Assembly: GCA_021784535.1 (NCBI GenBank)
Contig: JAJYHW010000049.1
Span: forward strand, 1 to 32,095
Length of the DNA stretch: 32,095 nucleotides
Reading direction: 5' to 3'
Source: a bacterium
GTDB taxonomy: Bacteria; Patescibacteriota; Microgenomatia; Levybacterales; UBA12049
Each line of letters opens with the position of its first letter. Within the stretch, counting starts at the first letter, position 1. Below the pieces are notes generated by a model. That model ran no database searches. It was not told the origin of the DNA and saw nothing but the letters and a program-made list of their open reading frames with translations. A program made the translations under genes and the position numbers. This document shows positions 15,668-30,615 of this stretch, piece by piece.

Positions 15668-15684
15668 ACTTCAAGATAAGTCTT

Positions 15685-15715
15685 AAAGTCATAAAGAGAA
15701 TTGCTTGATGACTTT
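15685..15715 (+). repeat. Hairpin in the glmS 5' leader built from heptad-like units
   Basis: aaagtcat (15685-15692) pairs perfectly with atgacttt (15708-15715). The flanks read taagtct/taaagtc and gatgact/tttgaca/tgatgac with 7-nt spacing. Confidence 0.5.
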
Positions 15716-15742
15716 TGACATGATGACATTTGGCTGTTACAT

Positions 15743-17605
15743 ATGTGCGGCATATTTGGCTATATCGGTAAAAAAACAAACGCGACAGAGATCGTTTTTG
15801 GCGGGCTCAAAACGCTTGAATATCGCGGATATGATTCCTGGGGAATAGCAATCAAAGATCAAAGATCTAAGATCAAAGATCAAAGGCTAATCGTTGAAAA
15901 AGAAACTGGCAAACTACCAAATGCTCTTCCTAAATCTTCAATACTAAATCTTCAATCCTCCCTCGCCATTGGTCATACCCGATGGGCAACGCATGGCGGC
16001 GTGACTGTAGCCAACGCACATCCGCATCTGGATTGCTTCAAGCAAATTGCTGTTGTTCATAACGGTATCATTGAAAATTTCCAGGAGCTCAAAAAAAAAC
16101 TTGCAAAACAGGGACATATATTCCACTCCCAAACCGACACGGAAATTGTCCCTCATTTGATTGAAGAAATCATGAATCCTTCTTCCCTGAGCGAACGAAG
16201 CGAGTCGAAGGGGGAAAATCAAACTAGCCTTCGACAGGCTCAGGCAAAAAAAGAATTTACAACTGCAGTCCGTGAAGCTTTTAATCAACTACAAGGGATG
16301 AATGCAATTGTTGCCGCATACGCTCCCTCAAATGAAATCATTGCTGCCAAAAATGGATCACCGCTTGCAGTGGGAATCGGTAAAGATGAATTATTTATCG
16401 CTTCGGACGCTTCGGGCATCTCAGAATACACAAAAGACGTGATCTTTCTCGCAGATCACCAGATGATTATTCTTGGAGAAAAGCTAAAACTTCTTAAGCT
16501 TCCAAACGGAAAAGCAATCAAACCGGAAATAACCAAACTCACCTGGCATTTTGAAAATACAGAAAAAGGCAACTATCCGCACTTCATTTTGAAAGAAATT
16601 CATGAGCAACCCAACGTTATTAAACATATTGCCCTCGCCTATTCCGACGAAGCAAAAAAACTTGCAAAGTTGATCAAAAAAGCATTCGGCACCTTTATGC
16701 TCGGTTGCGGCACCGCATCATATGCAGGACTTGCAGGTACCTACCTTTTCTCATCAATCGCAAGAAAACATATCAACTTCACCATCGGCTCTGAATTCAA
16801 ATATCTTGAAGATTACGTACAAAAAGGCACACTCGTGATCCCTATTTCGCAATCAGGTGAAACAATTGATGTTGTCGAGCCGGTTGAAAAAGCCAGAAAA
16901 AAAGGCGCGACTATTGCCGCGCTTGTCAATGTCCCTGGCTCTACTCTCTATCGGCAGGCAGATCACAAATTCCTGCTCGGTGCAGGCCAGGAAAAAGCAG
17001 TTGTGGCAACCAAAAGTTTCATGAGCATGTTCTCAATTCTCTTTCTCACAGCATATACTATTATCGATAAGCCGCAGGATGCCAAAAAACAGCTTCTCAT
17101 CGCAGCTGAAAATATCAACATGATTTTAAAAGATAAAAATAAAGCTAAGATCAAAAAACTTGCAGAAGAAATCAAAAAAAGTGAACACATCTATCTCCTC
17201 GGACGAGGACTAGCCTACGCGACTGCTCTGGAGGCGGCACTAAAAATCAAAGAGACAAGCTATGTGCACGCGGAAGGTTTTGCCGGCGGAGAACTCAAGC
17301 ATGGCGTCATTGCGTTAATTGAAAAAGCAACTCCGTGTATTATTTTTGCGCCGGATGATGATACCTATGAAGAAATTATTTCAAACGCGCAGGAAGTAAA
17401 AGCGCGCGGCGGCTTCATCATCGGCATCGGTCCCAAAAATAACGAAGTTTTTGACCGGTTTATTCAAACAGCAAGCTGCAGAGAAGCAACATTGCTTGGA
17501 CAAATCGCCGTTGCACAGCTCCTCGCCTATTATCTCGCACTCGCCCGAGGTATCAAAGATCCGGACAAACCCCGCAATTTGGCAAAATCCGTAACGGTAA
17601 AATAA
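15743..17605 (+). CDS. glmS: Glutamine--fructose-6-phosphate aminotransferase (isomerising)
   Basis: The N-terminus is MCGIFGYIG (catalytic Cys2). It also has HTRWATHG, two SIS domains, and the C-terminal PRNLAKSVTVK. Repeat-derived extra segments are listed separately. Confidence 0.95.
   Translation: MCGIFGYIGKKTNATEIVFGGLKTLEYRGYDSWGIAIKDQRSKIKDQRLIVEKETGKLPNALPKSSILNLQSSLAIGHTRWATHGGVTVANAHPHLDCFKQIAVVHNGIIENFQELKKKLAKQGHIFHSQTDTEIVPHLIEEIMNPSSLSERSESKGENQTSLRQAQAKKEFTTAVREAFNQLQGMNAIVAAYAPSNEIIAAKNGSPLAVGIGKDELFIASDASGISEYTKDVIFLADHQMIILGEKLKLLKLPNGKAIKPEITKLTWHFENTEKGNYPHFILKEIHEQPNVIKHIALAYSDEAKKLAKLIKKAFGTFMLGCGTASYAGLAGTYLFSSIARKHINFTIGSEFKYLEDYVQKGTLVIPISQSGETIDVVEPVEKARKKGATIAALVNVPGSTLYRQADHKFLLGAGQEKAVVATKSFMSMFSILFLTAYTIIDKPQDAKKQLLIAAENINMILKDKNKAKIKKLAEEIKKSEHIYLLGRGLAYATALEAALKIKETSYVHAEGFAGGELKHGVIALIEKATPCIIFAPDDDTYEEIISNAQEVKARGGFIIGIGPKNNEVFDRFIQTASCREATLLGQIAVAQLLAYYLALARGIKDPDKPRNLAKSVTVK
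15851..15885 (+). repeat. Five tandem heptamers (ATCAAAG x4 plus ATCTAAG) inside the glmS coding sequence
   Basis: The DNA reads atcaaag atcaaag atctaag atcaaag atcaaag and encodes IKDQRSKIKDQR. This loop is about 5 aa longer than in E. coli GlmS. Confidence 0.8.
16186..16244 (+). repeat. Palindromic (REP/RPE-like) element embedded in frame in glmS
   Basis: cctgagc (16186-16192) pairs with gctcagg (16238-16244), and gtcgaagg (16204-16211) pairs with ccttcgac (16228-16235). It encodes ...SLSERSESKGENQTSLRQAQ..., part of a segment about 26 aa longer than the equivalent E. coli region. Confidence 0.75.
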
Positions 17606-17691: not shown

Positions 17692-17874
17692 ATGATCACA
17701 CCGGTAACGTTTGTTCGCCAGTCATATGATGAATTAAGACAGGTTGTTTGGCCGTCACGAAAAGAAATATTTCGATTAACAGGCATTGTGATCATTTTAA
17801 GTATTCTGACAGGGCTTTATATCGGAGGGCTTGACTGGATCTTTACACAGGCCATACAACTGTTATTGAAGTAA
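17692..17874 (+). CDS. secE: Preprotein translocase subunit SecE
   Basis: It is a 60-aa protein with a single C-terminal TM segment. The string ELRQVVWPSRKEI is typical of SecE, and the gene sits immediately upstream of nusG. The ATG at 17692 is preferred to the TTG at 17671. Confidence 0.8.
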   Translation: MITPVTFVRQSYDELRQVVWPSRKEIFRLTGIVIILSILTGLYIGGLDWIFTQAIQLLLK

Positions 17875-17878
17875 TGTG

Positions 17879-17933
17879 AAATGACCAATGACACATATCT
17901 AATTGGTCATTTATCATTGAGCATTTATCATTT
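17879..17933 (+). repeat. Heptad-periodic hairpin in the secE-nusG spacer
   Basis: aaatgaccaat (17879-17889) pairs with attggtcattt (17902-17912) over 11 bp. The arms read aatgacc/aatgaca and ttggtca/tttatca/ttgagca/tttatca. Confidence 0.6.
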
Positions 17934-17938
17934 AATTT

Positions 17939-18523
17939 ATGGATACACCAGTACAACAAAAACCAAGAGAAACAGACGAAAAGACACAAGCTCTTTCTGA
18001 CAAAGGCAAGTGGTATATCCTTCATACGTACGCGGGCCATGAAAACAAAGTTGAACGGTCACTCAAACAGCGTGTCGAATCAATGAAATTTACCGACCGC
18101 GTATTTGATATCATCGTTCCGACACGAAACACCATCAAAGTCTCGCAGGGCAAAAAAGAAACTGTAAAAGAAAAAATCTTCCCCGGATACGTTCTTGTGA
18201 AGATGATTCTTGATGATGAAACATGGATTATGGTACGAAGCACGCCAGGTGTCACCTCTTTTATCGGCGCTGGCAATAAGCCAACACCGATTTCTGAAAA
18301 AGAAGTTGAAGCGATTCAGAAATTCATGAAACTGGAAGAGCCGATGTATAAAGTGCAATTCTCAGTCGGCGAAGCTGTCAAGATCACTGACGGACCATTC
18401 ACAGAATTTTTGGGAACTATTGAATCTATTGATGAAGCGCGAGGAAAATTAAAAATACTAGTCAGTATTTTTGGTCGCGAGACACCGGTAGAGCTTGATT
18501 TTCTTCAAGTGAAGAAAATCTAG
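17939..18523 (+). CDS. nusG: Transcription termination/antitermination factor NusG
   Basis: KWYILHTYAGHENKV marks the NGN domain, and a C-terminal KOW region (GEAVKITDGPF) follows. Synteny with secE and rplK supports the call. Confidence 0.95.
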   Translation: MDTPVQQKPRETDEKTQALSDKGKWYILHTYAGHENKVERSLKQRVESMKFTDRVFDIIVPTRNTIKVSQGKKETVKEKIFPGYVLVKMILDDETWIMVRSTPGVTSFIGAGNKPTPISEKEVEAIQKFMKLEEPMYKVQFSVGEAVKITDGPFTEFLGTIESIDEARGKLKILVSIFGRETPVELDFLQVKKI

Positions 18524-18527
18524 AACA

Positions 18528-18586
18528 GGGCATAGTGGATAGTGAATAGGCAAACTTTTCTCTATCCCCTATAACCTATAACCTAA
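18528..18586 (+). repeat. 59-nt structured element, copy 1, ending 3 nt before the rplK ATG
   Basis: gggcatagtggatagtgaataggcaaacttttctctatcccctataacctataacctaa is identical to 19013-19071. Confidence 0.9.
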
Positions 18587-18589
18587 TCT

Positions 18590-19012
18590 ATGGCTAAAAA
18601 AATAAAAACACTTATCAAGATAGCACTTCCTGCAGGAGCAGCAACACCGGCACCGCCCGTCGGTACAGCTCTTGGACCTCATGGACTCAACATCATGGAG
18701 TTTGTCAAAGCGTATAATGATAAGACAGCTGAGCTTAAAGGCAATATCATTCCTGTTGTGATCACTGTTTACGAAGATCGCACTTTTAGTTTCATCACAA
18801 AGAAACCACCAGTTGCTGAAATGATTAAAAAGGCAATTGGCAAAGATAAAGGCAGTCAGAAACCTGGACGTGATAAAATTGCTGTACTGACGATGGATCA
18901 AGCGCGAAAAATTGCAGAAGACAAATTGGAAGATTTAAATACTGACGATATTGAGATGGGTGCCCGCGTTGTCGCTGGGACAGCCCGCAGTATGGGAATT
19001 GCTGTTGAATAA
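18590..19012 (+). CDS. rplK: 50S ribosomal protein L11
   Basis: The 140-aa ORF carries [24 protein letters not shown], typical of L11. Confidence 0.95.
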
Positions 19013-19071
19013 GGGCATAGTGGATAGTGAATAGGCAAACTTTTCTCTATCCCCTATAACCTATAACCTAA
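19013..19071 (+). repeat. 59-nt structured element, copy 2, starting right after the rplK stop and ending 4 nt before the rplA ATG
   Basis: It is 100% identical to 18528-18586. Confidence 0.9.
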
Positions 19072-19075
19072 ACTT

Positions 19076-19930
19076 ATGGGAAAAATCAGAATTAAAACAA
19101 TCGGAGATGAAGAACAGGAGAAAGTAGACGCAAAAAAGGCGCAAGCTCGAGCTATTGCTAAAAAAGCCCGTGAAGAAGCTGAGGCACGAAACGCAGCTGC
19201 TGAGGGAAATAAACCACAAGCGCAAGAAGCTAAAACTGAAAAACAAACTGAGCAAGCTACTCCTGAGCCTAAAAAAGAGAAGGTTGTAGTAAAAAAAGCT
19301 ATTTCAAACAAAAAGAAACAGTCTGACAGTTACCAGAAAGTCACCGCTTTTGTTGATAAAAACAAAAAATATAAACTGAGTGAGGCTCTTTTGCTTCTCG
19401 GAAAACTCAAAAGAGCAGCATTTGATGAAACTGTCGAACTTCATATCAATACTACTGAAAAAGGGATTTCAGGAAGCCTTACTCTTCCCCATGGAACCGG
19501 AAAAACAACACGGGTTACTGTCGCAAATGCAAGTGAAGATCCAAAACAGGTGGATGATCTGATTAAAGCAATCGAATCGGGCAAAATTGACTTTGATGTC
19601 CTGATAGCAACTCCTGAAACAATGCCAAAATTGGCAAAGGTTGCCCGTGTCCTAGGACCCCGTGGCTTGATGCCAAATCCGAAAAACGGCACCGTCACAC
19701 CAAAACCTGATGAAATCGCGAAAAAATTTGCCGGCGGCCAATTTAATTACAAAACTGAAGCTAAATTCCCGCTTCTGCATCTTGCAGTTGGCAAACTCTC
19801 TTTTGGCGATAAAAAACTTGAAGAAAATATCATCACAGCAATACATGCTGTCAAAACAAAAAATATTAAATCCATAACCTTAAAACTAACCATGAGTCCG
19901 GGAATTAAAATCGAAACAGCAAGTCTTTAA
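19076..19930 (+). CDS. rplA: 50S ribosomal protein L1 with an N-terminal Lys/Ala/Glu-rich extension of about 80 aa
   Basis: The L1 core begins near YQKVTAFVDKNKKYKLSEAL and includes LPHGTGK and GPRGLMPNPK. No alternative start codon lies closer to the core. Confidence 0.9.
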   Translation: MGKIRIKTIGDEEQEKVDAKKAQARAIAKKAREEAEARNAAAEGNKPQAQEAKTEKQTEQATPEPKKEKVVVKKAISNKKKQSDSYQKVTAFVDKNKKYKLSEALLLLGKLKRAAFDETVELHINTTEKGISGSLTLPHGTGKTTRVTVANASEDPKQVDDLIKAIESGKIDFDVLIATPETMPKLAKVARVLGPRGLMPNPKNGTVTPKPDEIAKKFAGGQFNYKTEAKFPLLHLAVGKLSFGDKKLEENIITAIHAVKTKNIKSITLKLTMSPGIKIETASL

Positions 19931-20264: not shown

Positions 20265-20692
20265 ATGGTAAACGCAAAAATAAAACATGATTGCAAAACA
20301 GAACTAAATTATGTTGCTCTTCGCGCAACACCGGCGAGAATTGCCATCATGAAGCTACTGACAAACCGCTGGATGTACAAACAATGATAGATTATCTAAA
20401 TCAACAAGAAATTAAAACTGATCCAGCAACAGTCTTTCGTATTGTTAATATGTTCAAAGAAAAAGAACTTTTACAATCTATTCAATTAAATGAGAGAAAA
20501 ATCCGCTATGAATTATCTTCAAAACCATATCATCATTTTGTCTGTGAACAATGTGGTGCTATTCAAGACATTTCAGACTTCAGTATTAAAGCAGTTGAAG
20601 ATGAAATTCAGGAAAAAAGACATATTAAGATAAAAAGTCATTCTCTAGAATTTTTCGGACTCTGTAAGGATTGCCAAAATAAAACAAATTAA
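20265..20692 (+). pseudogene. Fur-family metalloregulator (Zur-like) with a -1 frame discontinuity near 20358-20366
   Basis: Frame A from ATG 20265 gives MVNAKIKHDCKTELNYVALRATPARIAIMKLLTN..., a typical Fur N-terminal helix, and stops at 20385-20387. Frame B continues KPLDVQTMIDYL...TDPATVFRIVNMF...HHFVCEQCG...CKDCQ. The total of 428 nt is one nt short of a 142-aa Fur-sized ORF. Confidence 0.75.
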
Positions 20693-20694
20693 TT

Positions 20695-21609
20695 ATGAAA
20701 AAATCAGTATTTTTTATTATTATTGTTCTTCTTATCATCGGCTTCTTAGGATTCTTACTAGCAAACAGAAAACAGACAAGTCGATTGTCTTCATCAACCA
20801 TTCAAATCGTTGCGGCAGAAAATTTCTATGGAGATATCGCAAAACAACTTGGTGGAAATAAAGTACAAGTTCTGAGTATCCTTTCCAATCCGAACGCAGA
20901 TCCACATGAATATGAGTCAAGTGTCCAGGATGCAGCAGCGGTTTCAAAAGCCAATATCGTTATTAAGAACGGAGATGGATATGACACATGGATGGACAAA
21001 TTACTTTCAGCTTCCCCAAATGCAAATAGAGTTGTACTAACTGGTGCAGATATTGCAAACCATAAGCTACCTGATAATCCTCATATATGGTATGGTATTG
21101 ATAATATACAAACCATTGCTGCAAGCATAACTAATGCTCTGAAAAAAGCTGATCCAGCAAATAGTGCAACATTCGATAGCAATCTCCAAACCTTTGATAA
21201 CTCTCTACAACCATTGCGTCAAAAAATGAATGACATTAAAACAAAATATAATGGTACACCTGTTGGATTAACGGAAACAATCTATCTTTATCAGACAGGG
21301 CCAATGGGACTCAACGTTTTAACGCCAATCGCATTTGAACGTGCTATTGCAGAAGGGAATGATCCATCGGCAAATGACGTTGCAACGGCAAACGATCAGA
21401 TAACGAAAAAACAAATAAAAGTATTGATCTACAATGCTCAGACAGTAACTCCGATAACAACCAACTTACAAAATAAAGCAAAAAGTAATAACATTCCGCT
21501 AGTAACAGTAACCGAAACCATGCCGACAAATAAACATTACCAAAGCTGGATGATGGATCAACTGAATAATCTCCAGCAGGCGTTGTCAACCAGTTCCGTC
21601 TCTCATTGA
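20695..21609 (+). CDS. Metal ABC transporter substrate-binding protein (ZnuA/TroA/MntC cluster A-I family)
   Basis: It has an N-terminal TM or signal anchor and the strings ENFYGDIAKQLGG, NADPHEYE and NPHIWY. No His-rich loop is present, so metal specificity is open. Confidence 0.85.
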   Translation: MKKSVFFIIIVLLIIGFLGFLLANRKQTSRLSSSTIQIVAAENFYGDIAKQLGGNKVQVLSILSNPNADPHEYESSVQDAAAVSKANIVIKNGDGYDTWMDKLLSASPNANRVVLTGADIANHKLPDNPHIWYGIDNIQTIAASITNALKKADPANSATFDSNLQTFDNSLQPLRQKMNDIKTKYNGTPVGLTETIYLYQTGPMGLNVLTPIAFERAIAEGNDPSANDVATANDQITKKQIKVLIYNAQTVTPITTNLQNKAKSNNIPLVTVTETMPTNKHYQSWMMDQLNNLQQALSTSSVSH

Positions 21610-21628
21610 GATATAAAACAATAATCAT

Positions 21629-22396
21629 ATGCAAACATCTACTATCGAACTTAATAAAGTAGCTCTTACACTAAATGAAAGAACGATCCTCCATGATATC
21701 TCTCTTATCATAAACGAAGGTGAATTTGTGGCCATTCTTGGACCAAACGGTGCGGGGAAAAGTACGCTTCTCAAACTTCTTTTAGGCCTCTATAAACCAA
21801 CTGCCGGTAATATAGCTATTCTTGGTAAATCACCCAAACGTGGAAATAGAGATATTGGTTATGCTCCTCAGCACCGGACACTTGAGACGGATTTAGCACT
21901 TCGCGCAAGAGATGTTGTAGGATTTGGGCTTGATGGTAACCAATGGGGCATCACACTGCCCAATAAAAATCGCGACAAGTATATTGAACAAGCACTGGAT
22001 GAAGTTGATATGCTTCATCTTGCAAATATGCCCGTCGGGCAACTGTCAGGCGGCGAACAACAACAATTGCTTATTGCACAAGCGTTATTAACTTATCCCA
22101 AAATTCTTATTCTTGATGAGCCGCTTTCTAATCTTGATATTATTCATTCAGAAGGAATCGTTTCGCTTATCAATAAGATAGCCAGAAGCCGTAAAATGAC
22201 TGTCTTATTGGTAACCCACGATGTAAATCTGCTCCTTCCTGTTATTGATAAAGTACTTTATATGGCAAATACCCATTGCGCAATTGGTAAACCGGAAAAA
22301 GTTATCACCAATGACAATCTTACCCAGTTGTACGGGTCTCCTGTTGAAGTGATAAAAGCCCGTGGACGGTTATTTGTCATCGGTGAAGAAACATAA
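21629..22396 (+). CDS. Metal ABC transporter ATP-binding protein (ZnuC-like)
   Basis: It has Walker A GPNGAGKST, the signature LSGGEQQ and Walker B ILILDEP. Confidence 0.9.
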   Translation: MQTSTIELNKVALTLNERTILHDISLIINEGEFVAILGPNGAGKSTLLKLLLGLYKPTAGNIAILGKSPKRGNRDIGYAPQHRTLETDLALRARDVVGFGLDGNQWGITLPNKNRDKYIEQALDEVDMLHLANMPVGQLSGGEQQQLLIAQALLTYPKILILDEPLSNLDIIHSEGIVSLINKIARSRKMTVLLVTHDVNLLLPVIDKVLYMANTHCAIGKPEKVITNDNLTQLYGSPVEVIKARGRLFVIGEET

Positions 22397-22400
22397 CTTT

Positions 22401-23207
22401 ATGCTTGAAATATTGCAGTATCCATTTATTCAAAACGCATTTATTGCATCCCTTTTTATTTCAGCAGTTTCTGCTATTGTCGGCTATTTTATCCTTGCAA
22501 GAAAACTTACTTTTGCAGGACATGCATTTTCTCATGTAGGATTTGCCGGAGCAGCAGGTGCTGTTTGGCTTGGGATCAATCCTTTATGGGGTCTTCTTTC
22601 ATTCACAATAGCTGCTGCTGTAGCAGTTGGTTCATTAGGGAAACAATTCCGGGAACGGGATGTGCCAATTGGTATTATCCTGACTCTTGCGATGTCATTC
22701 GGCGTACTCTTTTTATTCCTTTATGCAGGATATGCTGAAGAAGCTTACAGTATTCTATTTGGGACAATTCTTGGAATCAACACAACCAATGTCCTTATCA
22801 CAGCTCTTTTTAGTCTTTTAACAATTGGTGCGATTGCTTTCATTTTTCGTCCGCTGTTATTTAGTTCTATTGATCCGGAAGTAGCTGAAGCACGTGGTGT
22901 TCCAACAAATTCTTTATCAATCATTTTTCTTATCCTTGTTGCGATAACGATTTCAATTTCAGTACAAATTGTCGGCGTTCTTCTTATTTTTACCCTTCTT
23001 GTCGGACCCGCAGCAACAGCAATGAGGCTTAGCAAAAATCCGTATAATGCAATCGGGCTTGCTGTTCTTCTTGGGCTTTTGTATAGCTGGGTAGGAATTT
23101 TTCTAGCTGCAATTACTAATTTACCCGTCTCTTTTTATATTGCGACACTTTCATTTGGTGTATATTTACCGGTTCGGTTATATATTAATTCACCAACCAA
23201 AAAATAA
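22401..23207 (+). CDS. Metal ABC transporter permease (ABC-3/ZnuB family), copy 1
   Basis: It is a multi-TM protein with FSSIDPEVAEARGVP, typical of the ABC-3 family. I place the start at ATG 22401 (MLEILQYPFIQNAF). Confidence 0.85.
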   Translation: MLEILQYPFIQNAFIASLFISAVSAIVGYFILARKLTFAGHAFSHVGFAGAAGAVWLGINPLWGLLSFTIAAAVAVGSLGKQFRERDVPIGIILTLAMSFGVLFLFLYAGYAEEAYSILFGTILGINTTNVLITALFSLLTIGAIAFIFRPLLFSSIDPEVAEARGVPTNSLSIIFLILVAITISISVQIVGVLLIFTLLVGPAATAMRLSKNPYNAIGLAVLLGLLYSWVGIFLAAITNLPVSFYIATLSFGVYLPVRLYINSPTKK

Positions 23208-23209
23208 CT

Positions 23210-24070
23210 ATGCTTGAATTACTAAGTCATCAATTCGTACAAAATGCCTTTATTGCGGGTACAATTATTGCAATAGTCTGTGCTATTGTCGGCTATTTTG
23301 TCGTATTGCGACAACAAGCATTTGCATCCCACGCGCTCTCGCATATCGGTTTCGCAGGAGCAACGGGTGCAATTCTTATAGGATTTAGCTCTTTAACAGG
23401 TACATTTATATTTACCGTACTGGCAGCACTCGGTATGGGAACGCTTGACAAACGGCTAGCGGGAAGAGATGTTGAGATAGGGATGGTATTATCATTTGCG
23501 CTGGGTCTTGGTATATTGTTTCTGAAAATTTATACTACCAACGCGAATGAGGCAGTTGGCATTCTTTTCGGGTCAATCTTAAGTGTTACGTCGTATGATT
23601 TATTTTTGAGTATTATTACCGGAGCTATAACACTTCTTTTTGTTATCTTTTTATTCAGACCTCTTCTGTTTGCATCAGTTGATCCGGAAGTAGCTGAAGC
23701 ACGGGGCGTTCCAGTAAAACTTCTTTCAAGTGTATTTATGATACTACTTGCAGCAGCGGTAACAGAAGCTATTTTAATCGTAGGTGTACTGTTAGTCTTT
23801 GCCTTACTTGTTGCTCCCGCTGCTGTTGCACAGCATTTAAGCAAGAGGCCTTTTCTTACTATACTTTATTCTATCTTTTTTGGATTATTCTTTACCTGGG
23901 GAGGATTACTGCTTGCCTTATTATTTCATGGTCCAGTGAGCTTCTTTATAGCAGGATTGGCATCTCTTTCATATTTAGTAATTGTTCCATTTGCCCATCT
24001 TATTTCACCTCATTTATATAATACCTTTTATCACTCCAATAGGGAAAATAAATTTAATGTTGAAGTTTAG
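23210..24070 (+). CDS. Metal ABC transporter permease (ABC-3/ZnuB family), copy 2 (tandem paralog)
   Basis: MLELLSHQFVQNAF and FASVDPEVAEARGVP parallel copy 1. Confidence 0.85.
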   Translation: MLELLSHQFVQNAFIAGTIIAIVCAIVGYFVVLRQQAFASHALSHIGFAGATGAILIGFSSLTGTFIFTVLAALGMGTLDKRLAGRDVEIGMVLSFALGLGILFLKIYTTNANEAVGILFGSILSVTSYDLFLSIITGAITLLFVIFLFRPLLFASVDPEVAEARGVPVKLLSSVFMILLAAAVTEAILIVGVLLVFALLVAPAAVAQHLSKRPFLTILYSIFFGLFFTWGGLLLALLFHGPVSFFIAGLASLSYLVIVPFAHLISPHLYNTFYHSNRENKFNVEV

Positions 24071-26011: not shown

Positions 26012-26560
26012 ATGGATAACACAACAGTTAAAATCAGCCAAAATAGACAGAAAAAAGAACAGCTTGTTGCTGAATTACAAGAAAAAGTTAAAAAATCTAC
26101 CGGCATGGTCTTTGCCAACTATCAAGGCCTCACTCATCAGCAACTGGAAAATTTAAAAAAGAACCTGAAGAAAACTGAATCGGAATTTGTCGCTGTTAAA
26201 AATACCCTTTTGCAAATTGCACTAAAGGATAAAATTGACAAAGAAGCAACAAAAGAATACTTCGAACAGCCAACCGGTGCAATGTTTATCTATAATGATA
26301 TTGTTAATCCTCTCAAAGAACTTTCCAAAACAATTAAAGAATTAAAAATGCCCGTTATCAAATTTGGTATTCTTGAAGGAAAATTTGTTACTGACAAAGA
26401 AGTTACCAAAATTGCATCGCTTCCCCCGCTGCCTGTCCTTCGCGCGCAGCTGCTTGGACAGATGCAGGCACCTATCTCAGGACTGCATCGCGCTTTGCGA
26501 TGGAACTTACAATCTCTGGTAATGACACTTAATGCAGTTAAAGATAAAAAAACGGCTTAG
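26012..26560 (+). CDS. rplJ: 50S ribosomal protein L10
   Basis: The 182-aa ORF carries typical L10 sequence (FANYQGLTHQQLENLKK, LPPLPVLRAQLLG) and lies next to rplL. Confidence 0.95.
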   Translation: MDNTTVKISQNRQKKEQLVAELQEKVKKSTGMVFANYQGLTHQQLENLKKNLKKTESEFVAVKNTLLQIALKDKIDKEATKEYFEQPTGAMFIYNDIVNPLKELSKTIKELKMPVIKFGILEGKFVTDKEVTKIASLPPLPVLRAQLLGQMQAPISGLHRALRWNLQSLVMTLNAVKDKKTA

Positions 26561-26563
26561 GTT

Positions 26564-26628
26564 TTAGGGACTAGGTTCTAGGGACTAGGAAAATTATAAA
26601 ATTCTAAACCCTAACACCTAACCCCTAA
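26564..26628 (+). repeat. Heptad-periodic hairpin in the rplJ-rplL spacer
   Basis: The 5' arm is ttagggac/taggttc/tagggac/tagg and the 3' arm is ctaaacc/ctaacac/ctaaccc/ctaa. They pair as helices of 6, 5, 5 and 3 bp separated by 2x2 mismatches. The strong SD (gaggagg) of rplL follows directly. Confidence 0.75.
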
Positions 26629-29823: not shown

Positions 29824-30615
29824 TCAAGAGAAATAGTCTTTGCTAATCATAAAAATAAATTCCAAAAGAGCCAGTTGACGTCGCCACCGCCAGGGCTGAA
29901 CGATAAGACGGAATAACCATTCAAATCCTAAAAATCTGATAAGAAAAGGTGCCCTGGGGACAACGCCACTGATAAAATCAAAAGATCCTCCCACTCCCAT
30001 TGCTGCTTTTACTGGAATTTTATGTAAATGTTCGTAAATCCATTCCTCCTGTTTGGGGACACCGTATGCGACAAACAGGATGTCTATAGTAGTATCCGGT
30101 ATTATGTAGTTTGTATCATGCAAATTGCCTTGCTTCTTATCTTGATACTTACTACTTGCTACTTGATGCTTTTCTTTAAACAGAAAATCAGACTCGTTCC
30201 ATTCGCTTCCGGCAAAGCCGACCTTGATCCAAGGGTACTTCTGCAGTAAGCACTCAGCGGCCTTTTTTGCTACTCCATCTTTGCCGCCCAAAAAGCCCAT
30301 GGATAAAGGCTTTTCAGAGGTAGTCCTACACAACTCGTCTATAAAATCTACTCCTGTTATTCGCTCTTTCAGTGGTTTACCCATAAAAGTACTCGCAAAA
30401 AAGAGTCCGACCCCATCAGGCAAGGCTATATCAGCTGAGTTTAACATCTTCTTATACGCTTCATGCTTTTGCGCATATACAAGCATTTCGGGGTTAGGTG
30501 TAATGATAGAGATCTTATCAGAAGCTGTATGTAGCCGATCAATCAAATACTCTAGGATCTTTTCTTTCCGTTCATTGGTTATGGATACTCCAAGGATAAT
30601 ACATTTTTGTAGCAT
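29824..30615 (-). CDS. WecG/TagA/CpsF-family (GT26) glycosyltransferase
   Basis: PNPEMLV, ALPDGVGL, GVPKQEEWI and the C-terminal PWRWRR string are typical of GT26. It contains a repeat-derived extra segment (listed separately). Confidence 0.85.
   Translation of the reverse strand: MLQKCIILGVSITNERKEKILEYLIDRLHTASDKISIITPNPEMLVYAQKHEAYKKMLNSADIALPDGVGLFFASTFMGKPLKERITGVDFIDELCRTTSEKPLSMGFLGGKDGVAKKAAECLLQKYPWIKVGFAGSEWNESDFLFKEKHQVASSKYQDKKQGNLHDTNYIIPDTTIDILFVAYGVPKQEEWIYEHLHKIPVKAAMGVGGSFDFISGVVPRAPFLIRFLGFEWLFRLIVQPWRWRRQLALLEFIFMISKDYFS
30129..30170 (-). repeat. Six heptad units embedded in the GT26 coding sequence
   Basis: The plus strand reads cttgctt cttatct tgatact tactact tgctact tgatgct (42 nt, or 14 codons). 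It encodes ...KHQVASSKYQDKKQ..., in a region about 20 aa longer than I expect for this family. Confidence 0.65.

Follow-up and report, generated by a model that had tools for sequence, protein, structure and literature searches.

In a 32,095-nucleotide (nt) contig of a Microgenomatia bacterium (JAJYHW010000049.1 of assembly GCA_021784535.1, analyzed over its whole length and called the window below), the 59-nt sequence GGGCATAGTGGATAGTGAATAGGCAAACTTTTCTCTATCCCCTATAACCTATAACCTAA stands in front of both rplK and rplA, the genes of ribosomal proteins L11 and L1. We show that this 59-mer is a heptamer-ladder palindrome, a member of an intergenic class that is frequent in this candidate-phyla clade and also occurs across many other phyla. 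The explanation that we favor, and that we consider probable though far from certain, is that a palindrome of heptamers born by slippage was copied across rplK and is tolerated on the mRNA as an intercistronic hairpin, with no specific feedback by L1.

The two copies lie on the forward strand and are identical at every position. Searches of the window that allowed up to 3 mismatches or up to 12 substitutions revealed no third copy, and none of 100 shuffled sequences gave a match. Copy 1 fills the nusG-rplK spacer, beginning 4 nt past the nusG TAG (18521-18523) and stopping 3 nt short of the rplK ATG (18590), and copy 2 fills the rplK-rplA spacer, beginning directly past the rplK TAA (19010-19012) and stopping 4 nt short of the rplA ATG (19076). 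Pfam agreed with the identities of SecE, NusG, L11, and L1. Neither rplK nor rplA has a GGAG-type Shine-Dalgarno sequence upstream of its start, whereas rplL has GAGGAGGTG. An earlier note on this DNA had described the exact repeat, the filled spacers, and the difference in Shine-Dalgarno sites. Exact matching, direct reading, and the Pfam assignments bore out each of these points, the identity even extending one base further 5′ (an A at 18527 and 19012), to 60 nt. The genes and copies concerned are as follows.

17939-18523, + strand: nusG (Pfam NusG and KOW)
18528-18586, + strand: copy 1 of the heptamer-ladder element (exact match; predicted fold of -19.3 kcal/mol, z = -3.7)
18590-19012, + strand: rplK (L11), between the two copies (Pfam Ribosomal_L11_N and Ribosomal_L11)
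19013-19071, + strand: copy 2, identical to copy 1 (exact match)
19076-19930, + strand: rplA (L1) (Pfam Ribosomal_L1, residues 111-275)

An exact match to this L11 was recorded on seven contigs. Four of them were read (two from NCBI metagenome-assembled genomes, including GCA_027424635.1, and two from ENA assemblies), and all four hold both copies, which excludes an assembly artifact. In the strain variants L212 and L213, one base of copy 1 is substituted, indicating that the copies are free to diverge. This substitution, a single data point, changes a predicted G-C pair to G-U.

The 59-mer is built of three NNNATAG units, a 12-nt center, and three CTATNNN units, that is, of opposed arrays of 7-nt units. 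The arms, located by direct reading for the 5′ arm of copy 1 and by a detector of inverted period-7 arrays for all four, and the unpaired tails of the minimum-free-energy structure are listed here.

18532-18549, + strand: 5′ arm of copy 1, ATAG at 18532, 18539, and 18546 (period 7)
18562-18579, + strand: 3′ arm of copy 1, CTAT at 18562, 18569, and 18576 (period 7)
18577-18589, + strand: G-free 13-nt tail UAUAACCUAAUCU, unpaired, from the hairpin to the rplK AUG
19017-19034, + strand: 5′ arm of copy 2, three ATAG at period 7
19047-19064, + strand: 3′ arm of copy 2, three CTAT at period 7
19062-19075, + strand: 14-nt tail, unpaired, from the hairpin to the rplA AUG

Tandem Repeats Finder independently reported a period of 7 with the unit CCTATAA at 18568-18585 in copy 1, and an array at 19053-19070 in copy 2. 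The 5′ arm of copy 1 places TAG in all three reading frames, and by symmetry the opposite strand does likewise. RNA folding predicts a hairpin of 17 pairs in a shifted register over element positions 1 to 49 (-19.3 kcal/mol, z = -3.7), with internal loops that are only symmetric, 1×1 and 2×2. The third CUAU unit and the last bases of the element are single-stranded in this fold; the last 10 nt of the element and the 3 to 4 nt before the AUG are unpaired and contain no G. In this prediction, the proposal that the arms pair into a hairpin held, and that of a symmetric AUAG/CUAU ladder did not, given the shifted register and the unpaired third CUAU.

To determine whether a period of 7 was particular, we surveyed periods 4 to 12 in 746 kb of rplK-anchored loci, mostly from candidate-phyla relatives and with the window left out. 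Inverted arrays numbered 8 under strict and 32 under loose settings at period 7, against at most 1 and at most 7 at any other period. In shuffled sequence, period 7 gave no array and each other period no more than 1. Elements of this kind occupied 30 of 178 spacers of the ribosomal cluster and 23 of 673 other spacers in these loci, an enrichment (odds ratio 5.7, p = 4e-9) that rests on crude gene calls. The 59-mer shows what characterizes inverted heptanucleotide arrays, namely, a 7-nt unit, complementary opposed arrays, an intergenic location, and, as described below, quick change at a kept position.

The class extends well beyond these relatives. A general ladder pattern, ATAGnnnATAGnnnATAG-N(4-24)-CTATnnnCTATnnnCTAT, was scanned in one genome per species and found on at least 120 genome contigs, with a chance expectation of less than one match. 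According to record titles, the matches listed come from Cyanobacteria, Bacteroidota, Acidobacteriota, Planctomycetota, Chloroflexota, Firmicutes, Nitrospirota, candidate-phyla bacteria, and others; the source assembly of the window is not among them. In the 121 elements listed, the arm positions left free by the pattern are 62% complementary, none of the elements lies within an open reading frame (ORF), and they are separated from the upstream stop codon by a median of 4 nt. The ATAG elements are not demonstrably homologous across genomes. In viral contigs, the exact core of the 59-mer is absent, and the generic ladder occurs in only eight. At many of the listed ATAG elements (L085-L204), the upstream ORF enters the array and ends at the TAG of an early heptamer (distances of -4, -11, or -18), so that the array itself supplies the stop codon.

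The position and geometry of the hairpins look constrained. The 5′ tail after the stop codon has a median of 3 nt, and the 3′ tail before the AUG has a median of 13 nt when no Shine-Dalgarno sequence follows; some elements precede a normal Shine-Dalgarno site. A free stretch of 13 nt is about the single-stranded length needed by the 30S subunit.

Two further elements of the same architecture, with other sequences, are present in the window itself.

17873-17932, + strand: sister element of ATGAC and GTCAT units in the secE-nusG spacer (array detector, fold, and Tandem Repeats Finder)
26557-26628, + strand: sister element of TAGG and CCTA units in the rplJ-rplL spacer, with four helices split by 2×2 loops and followed by the Shine-Dalgarno sequence GAGGAGG

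Because the same build fills the secE-nusG and rplJ-rplL spacers, this type of element is not specific to L11 or L1. The secE-nusG hairpin has a predicted energy of -17 kcal/mol, and in most close relatives that spacer is 1 to 4 nt long. At the rplJ-rplL element, the rplJ stop codon TAG forms part of the first unit. The same spacer in the closest relative (L005/L205) holds a homologous but diverged element, and a very similar element is found in L006, at rplK-rplA.

We then compared the loci of relatives, which were fetched through L11; the closest proteins that bear a taxon name are labeled Candidatus Saccharimonadales or carry other candidate-phyla labels. In relatives whose L11 is 96 to 98% identical, the same spacers either contain heptamer hairpins with unrelated sequences or lack an element altogether, as the following loci illustrate.

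L214, nusG-rplK: heptamer hairpin of CTTAG type
L209, nusG-rplK and rplJ-rplL: TAGCG type
L006, rplK-rplA: TAGG type
L210, rplK-rplA: CTAA type, with a Shine-Dalgarno sequence
L215, L216, and L008: no element; spacers of 1 to 13 nt, still without a Shine-Dalgarno sequence

More distant candidate-phyla relatives have CGAA, GTAGA, AAAGT, and TATAAAT types at the same junctions. As the spacers of relatives hold other types or none, what recurs is the position and the architecture, not the sequence or even the presence of an element. In the closest sister lineage (L205 10427-10714; also L005 and L206-L208; L11 98% identical), a 95-residue ORF without a Pfam match lies between rplK and rplA, with flanking spacers of 3 and 8 nt.

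Copying between spacers was not restricted to the window. Two more independent lineages carry the same element on both flanks of rplK (L018, with copies about 90% identical, and L028, about 92%). One element is common to secE-nusG and rplK-rplA in L023, and one to nusG-rplK and rplJ-rplL in L209 and likewise in L015. Elsewhere in the flanks that were fetched, copies were seldom found. The window's identical pair is consistent with a local duplication or gene conversion of recent date. The alternative offered in the earlier note, a structured spacer or mobile unit whose copies are kept the same through gene conversion, is close to the data. No terminal repeat or target duplication was evident at the copy junctions (aaca and tct around copy 1, taa and actt around copy 2).

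The earlier note had preferred to see a duplicated translational operator. On this view, binding of free L1 to both copies would repress rplK and rplA, as at the two sites of Firmicutes. The idea was a reasonable one, since dual L1 sites before rplK and rplA are present in more than 40% of Firmicutes (PMC3616713). The L1 leader is described as a stem of 6 to 12 bp in which conserved pairs enclose an asymmetric internal bulge that contains one G-A pair and one unpaired A (PMC3616713). The element resembles this RNA in being a short stem-loop placed directly before rplK and rplA (PMC3616713), and its 2×2 loop (G3 C4/A46 A47) could host a G-A pair beside G-C pairs. It differs in having neither the asymmetric G-A/A bulge nor GGAG, in being unconserved, with some close relatives lacking any element, and in having sister elements of the same architecture before nusG and rplL, genes unrelated to L1; the class as a whole adjoins unrelated genes in many phyla. 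The structural comparison was made with the E. coli site and the published description, not with a consensus alignment. In the E. coli site, GGGGAGCC...GUUAUUACCC, which reads GGG-GA-GCCUC...GAGGC-GUUAUUA-CCC, GGAG lies at the asymmetric bulge. Searches of Rfam 15 (gathering and E-value thresholds) gave no match on the window and none on the positive control, the E. coli rplK leader, so that Rfam is uninformative on L1 leaders. By the features that could be tested, the element is not an L1 leader. An RNA that imitates the conserved L1 site of 23S rRNA should itself be conserved, and the element is not: the check on relatives that the earlier note had called for showed the 59-mer to be replaced by unrelated elements or by none where L11 is 96 to 98% identical. 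This strongly disfavors the operator, which we now regard as very improbable.

The same turnover bears on a transcriptional role, either as an internal promoter yielding mRNAs with short leaders or as an intercistronic terminator or attenuator. TATAAC occurs twice in the 3′ arm, and TAGGCA lies 17 nt 5′ of the first of them. A consensus scan, however, picked out nothing within the two copies that resembles a promoter or a terminator. The conserved final T is missing from TATAAC, the stem does not lead into a T-run (the 3′ tail reads CCUAUAACCUAA), and the elements of relatives have unrelated sequences. We give this role almost no credence.

Heptanucleotide repeats are the most over-represented of the longer microsatellites in bacteria, and we know of no established function for them. 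The element described here is of a loosely defined kind that includes three published families, and it extends that kind to a new phylum and gene context. Like the STRR hairpins of filamentous cyanobacteria, it consists of 7-bp units, is intergenic within an operon, and can form a hairpin (PMC2670836). For the STRR hairpins between hupS and hupL, transcript stabilization or translational coupling has been proposed, with function unproven (PMC2670836). The element differs from them in phylum, unit, and gene context, and in that two identical copies flank one gene and fill the whole stop-to-start spacer. The inverted GGGAATC pairs of Xanthomonas are similar in having opposed heptamer arrays close to each other, intergenic, with position kept while length and sequence vary (PMC4692102); their units, however, are G-rich and have been studied as quadruplex formers, whereas the present element, which is AT-rich, is unable to form one. 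The TAACTGA direct repeats of marine Beggiatoaceae, Cyanobacteria, and Bacteroidetes share the presence in ribosomal-protein operons, arrays that end a few nt before starts without Shine-Dalgarno sequences, and stops in all frames (PMC4679880). The unit here, TAACCTA in that register, equals TAACTGA at 5 of 7 positions. The TAACTGA arrays are direct, with an inverted partner in one of 170 sets (PMC4679880), whereas here the inverted partner gives the hairpin. REP/BIME palindromes and MITEs are also short, genome-specific intergenic palindromes, often between cotranscribed genes and in more than one copy per genome, but no heptamer periodicity has been described for those families.

One relative, L209, contains arrays of related kinds. 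Its secE-nusG spacer has TAACTGT-type heptamers, close to the published TAACTGA repeat, and a direct-only TTTTCCA array lies past rplK (the two arrays being at L209 9205-9239 and 10424-10462). This contig resembles a long-read assembly and has frameshifted genes.

In the explanation that we favor, arrays would grow by slipped-strand expansion of a 7-nt unit, as has been proposed for heptanucleotide microsatellites generally (Mrazek et al. 2007, as related in PMC4679880 and PMC4692102), and the second arm would be made by inverted copying through template switching. Turnover would be quick, with copying between nearby spacers of the ribosomal-protein operon by conversion, the rplK pair being one recent case. 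The operon would be transcribed as one mRNA, on which the element would fold into a hairpin of about -19 kcal/mol, from 0 to 4 nt past the upstream stop codon to 13 to 14 nt before the next AUG. Given these end points, about 49 of the 63 to 66 spacer bases would be looped out, leaving the initiation region free of G and single-stranded. Translation of rplK and rplA, for which a Shine-Dalgarno sequence is lacking both here and in the element-free relatives, would thus still proceed as it does with spacers of 1 to 13 nt, possibly through coupling with the upstream cistron or through loading on the free tail that needs no Shine-Dalgarno sequence. Any further effect would be expected to be general, on mRNA stability, processing, or the tuning of coupling, rather than a specific feedback by L1.

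Several observations weigh against this explanation. Sense and antisense strands fold equally well: the sense strand was favored in 18 ribosomal-protein spacers and the antisense strand in 14 (p = 0.38), G-U pairs in the same comparison numbered 67 versus 72, and across phyla the split was 30 versus 37 (p = 0.75). Reduced translational coupling has been reported where structure lies immediately past a stop codon (review PMC12548453). The origin and the copying route are inferred, no intermediate having been observed, and the dispersal of the 59-mer itself was covered only as far as the 32-kb contig (two copies, both at rplK), since the scan of the genome collection used the general ATAG/CTAT pattern. 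The purine-rich arm comes first or second without preference. As the strands fold equally and arm order is unbiased, there is no signature of selection on transcript structure.

These data are also those expected of a neutral or selfish DNA palindrome, a by-product of slippage and template switching at short repeats that is merely harmless on the mRNA. Beyond the equal folding of the strands and the lack of preference in arm order, the varying presence among relatives with 96 to 98% identical L11 agrees with this possibility, as does the orientation of the genes that flank the listed elements (67 codirectional, 17 convergent, and 10 divergent), which resembles that of ordinary intergenic DNA. 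Harder to reconcile with it are the 5.7-fold enrichment in spacers of ribosomal-protein operons, in genomes that are small and compact, the steady geometry with about 13 nt free before the AUG, and the repeated occupation of the same junctions in independent lineages. We retain it as a possible but doubtful alternative.

Conversely, the hairpins may have a function across phyla as intercistronic punctuation of highly expressed operons, serving as platforms for Shine-Dalgarno-independent initiation or reinitiation or as processing or stability sites. The unit would be homogenized within each genome, and the rplK pair, which three lineages show independently, would determine the relative output of L11 and L1. 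Such a role appears unlikely to us. We think somewhat less still of a platform for a trans-acting factor, in which a single-strand RNA-binding protein (S1, a cold-shock protein, or the like) would bind the heptamers, chiefly those of the pyrimidine- and A-rich 3′ arm next to the AUG, would drive or regulate Shine-Dalgarno-independent initiation, and, through the identical copies, would place L11 and L1 under the same control. The direct array of 2.6 CCUAUAA units does end 3 to 4 nt before an AUG that has no Shine-Dalgarno sequence, in parallel with the TAACTGA repeats, for which the same mechanism was proposed and of which CspB binds one heptamer per protein (PMC4679880). One unit is common to different spacers of a genome, and enrichment at translation genes is seen both here and for the TAACTGA repeats (PMC4679880). 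However, the unit differs between very close relatives, so that a candidate factor would need little sequence specificity, some elements precede a normal Shine-Dalgarno sequence, and such a factor is putative.

For annotation, the results indicate that comparative support is needed before a repeat in front of ribosomal-protein genes is called an autoregulatory leader. With respect to the repeat class, they add that the inverted hairpin form is specific to period 7 and present in many phyla, and that it concentrates in, and is copied among, the spacers of ribosomal-protein operons (in rplK-anchored loci, mostly of candidate-phyla bacteria). If the hairpins do affect coupling or mRNA stability, they would provide very small genomes with a simple and fast-evolving tuner of ribosomal-protein stoichiometry.

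Other repeats were noted elsewhere in the window. The glmS leader (15676-15735) has AAGTC and GACTT repeats that form a -15 kcal/mol hairpin just 5′ of the ATG, with a weak z-score, and may belong to the heptamer-ladder class. Within the glmS ORF, five tandem ATCAAAG heptamers (15851-15885) and a 14-nt repeat present twice (15930-15956) encode a variable loop, KDQRSKIKDQR. We considered the array at 15851-15885 as an inserted hairpin and rejected it, as the peptide is common to the relative L205 and there is no significant fold. A period-7 array of 3.6 copies of CTTGCTA (Tandem Repeats Finder) lies at 30141-30165, within a minus-strand ORF (29824-30615).

L1 has an N-terminal extension of about 100 residues (19076-19405), rich in Lys, Glu, and Ala, the Pfam L1 domain beginning at residue 111; the start of the extension, MGKIRIKTIG, is kept across candidate-phyla relatives. 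A Fur and ZnuA/ABC zinc-uptake operon (20291-24070) sits between rplA and rplJ, a position where relatives have a large ORF of 700 to 880 residues, with ricin-type lectin domains wherever Pfam finds any domain. With either the zinc operon or the large ORF in between, the rplKA and rplJL pairs are thus apart in this clade.

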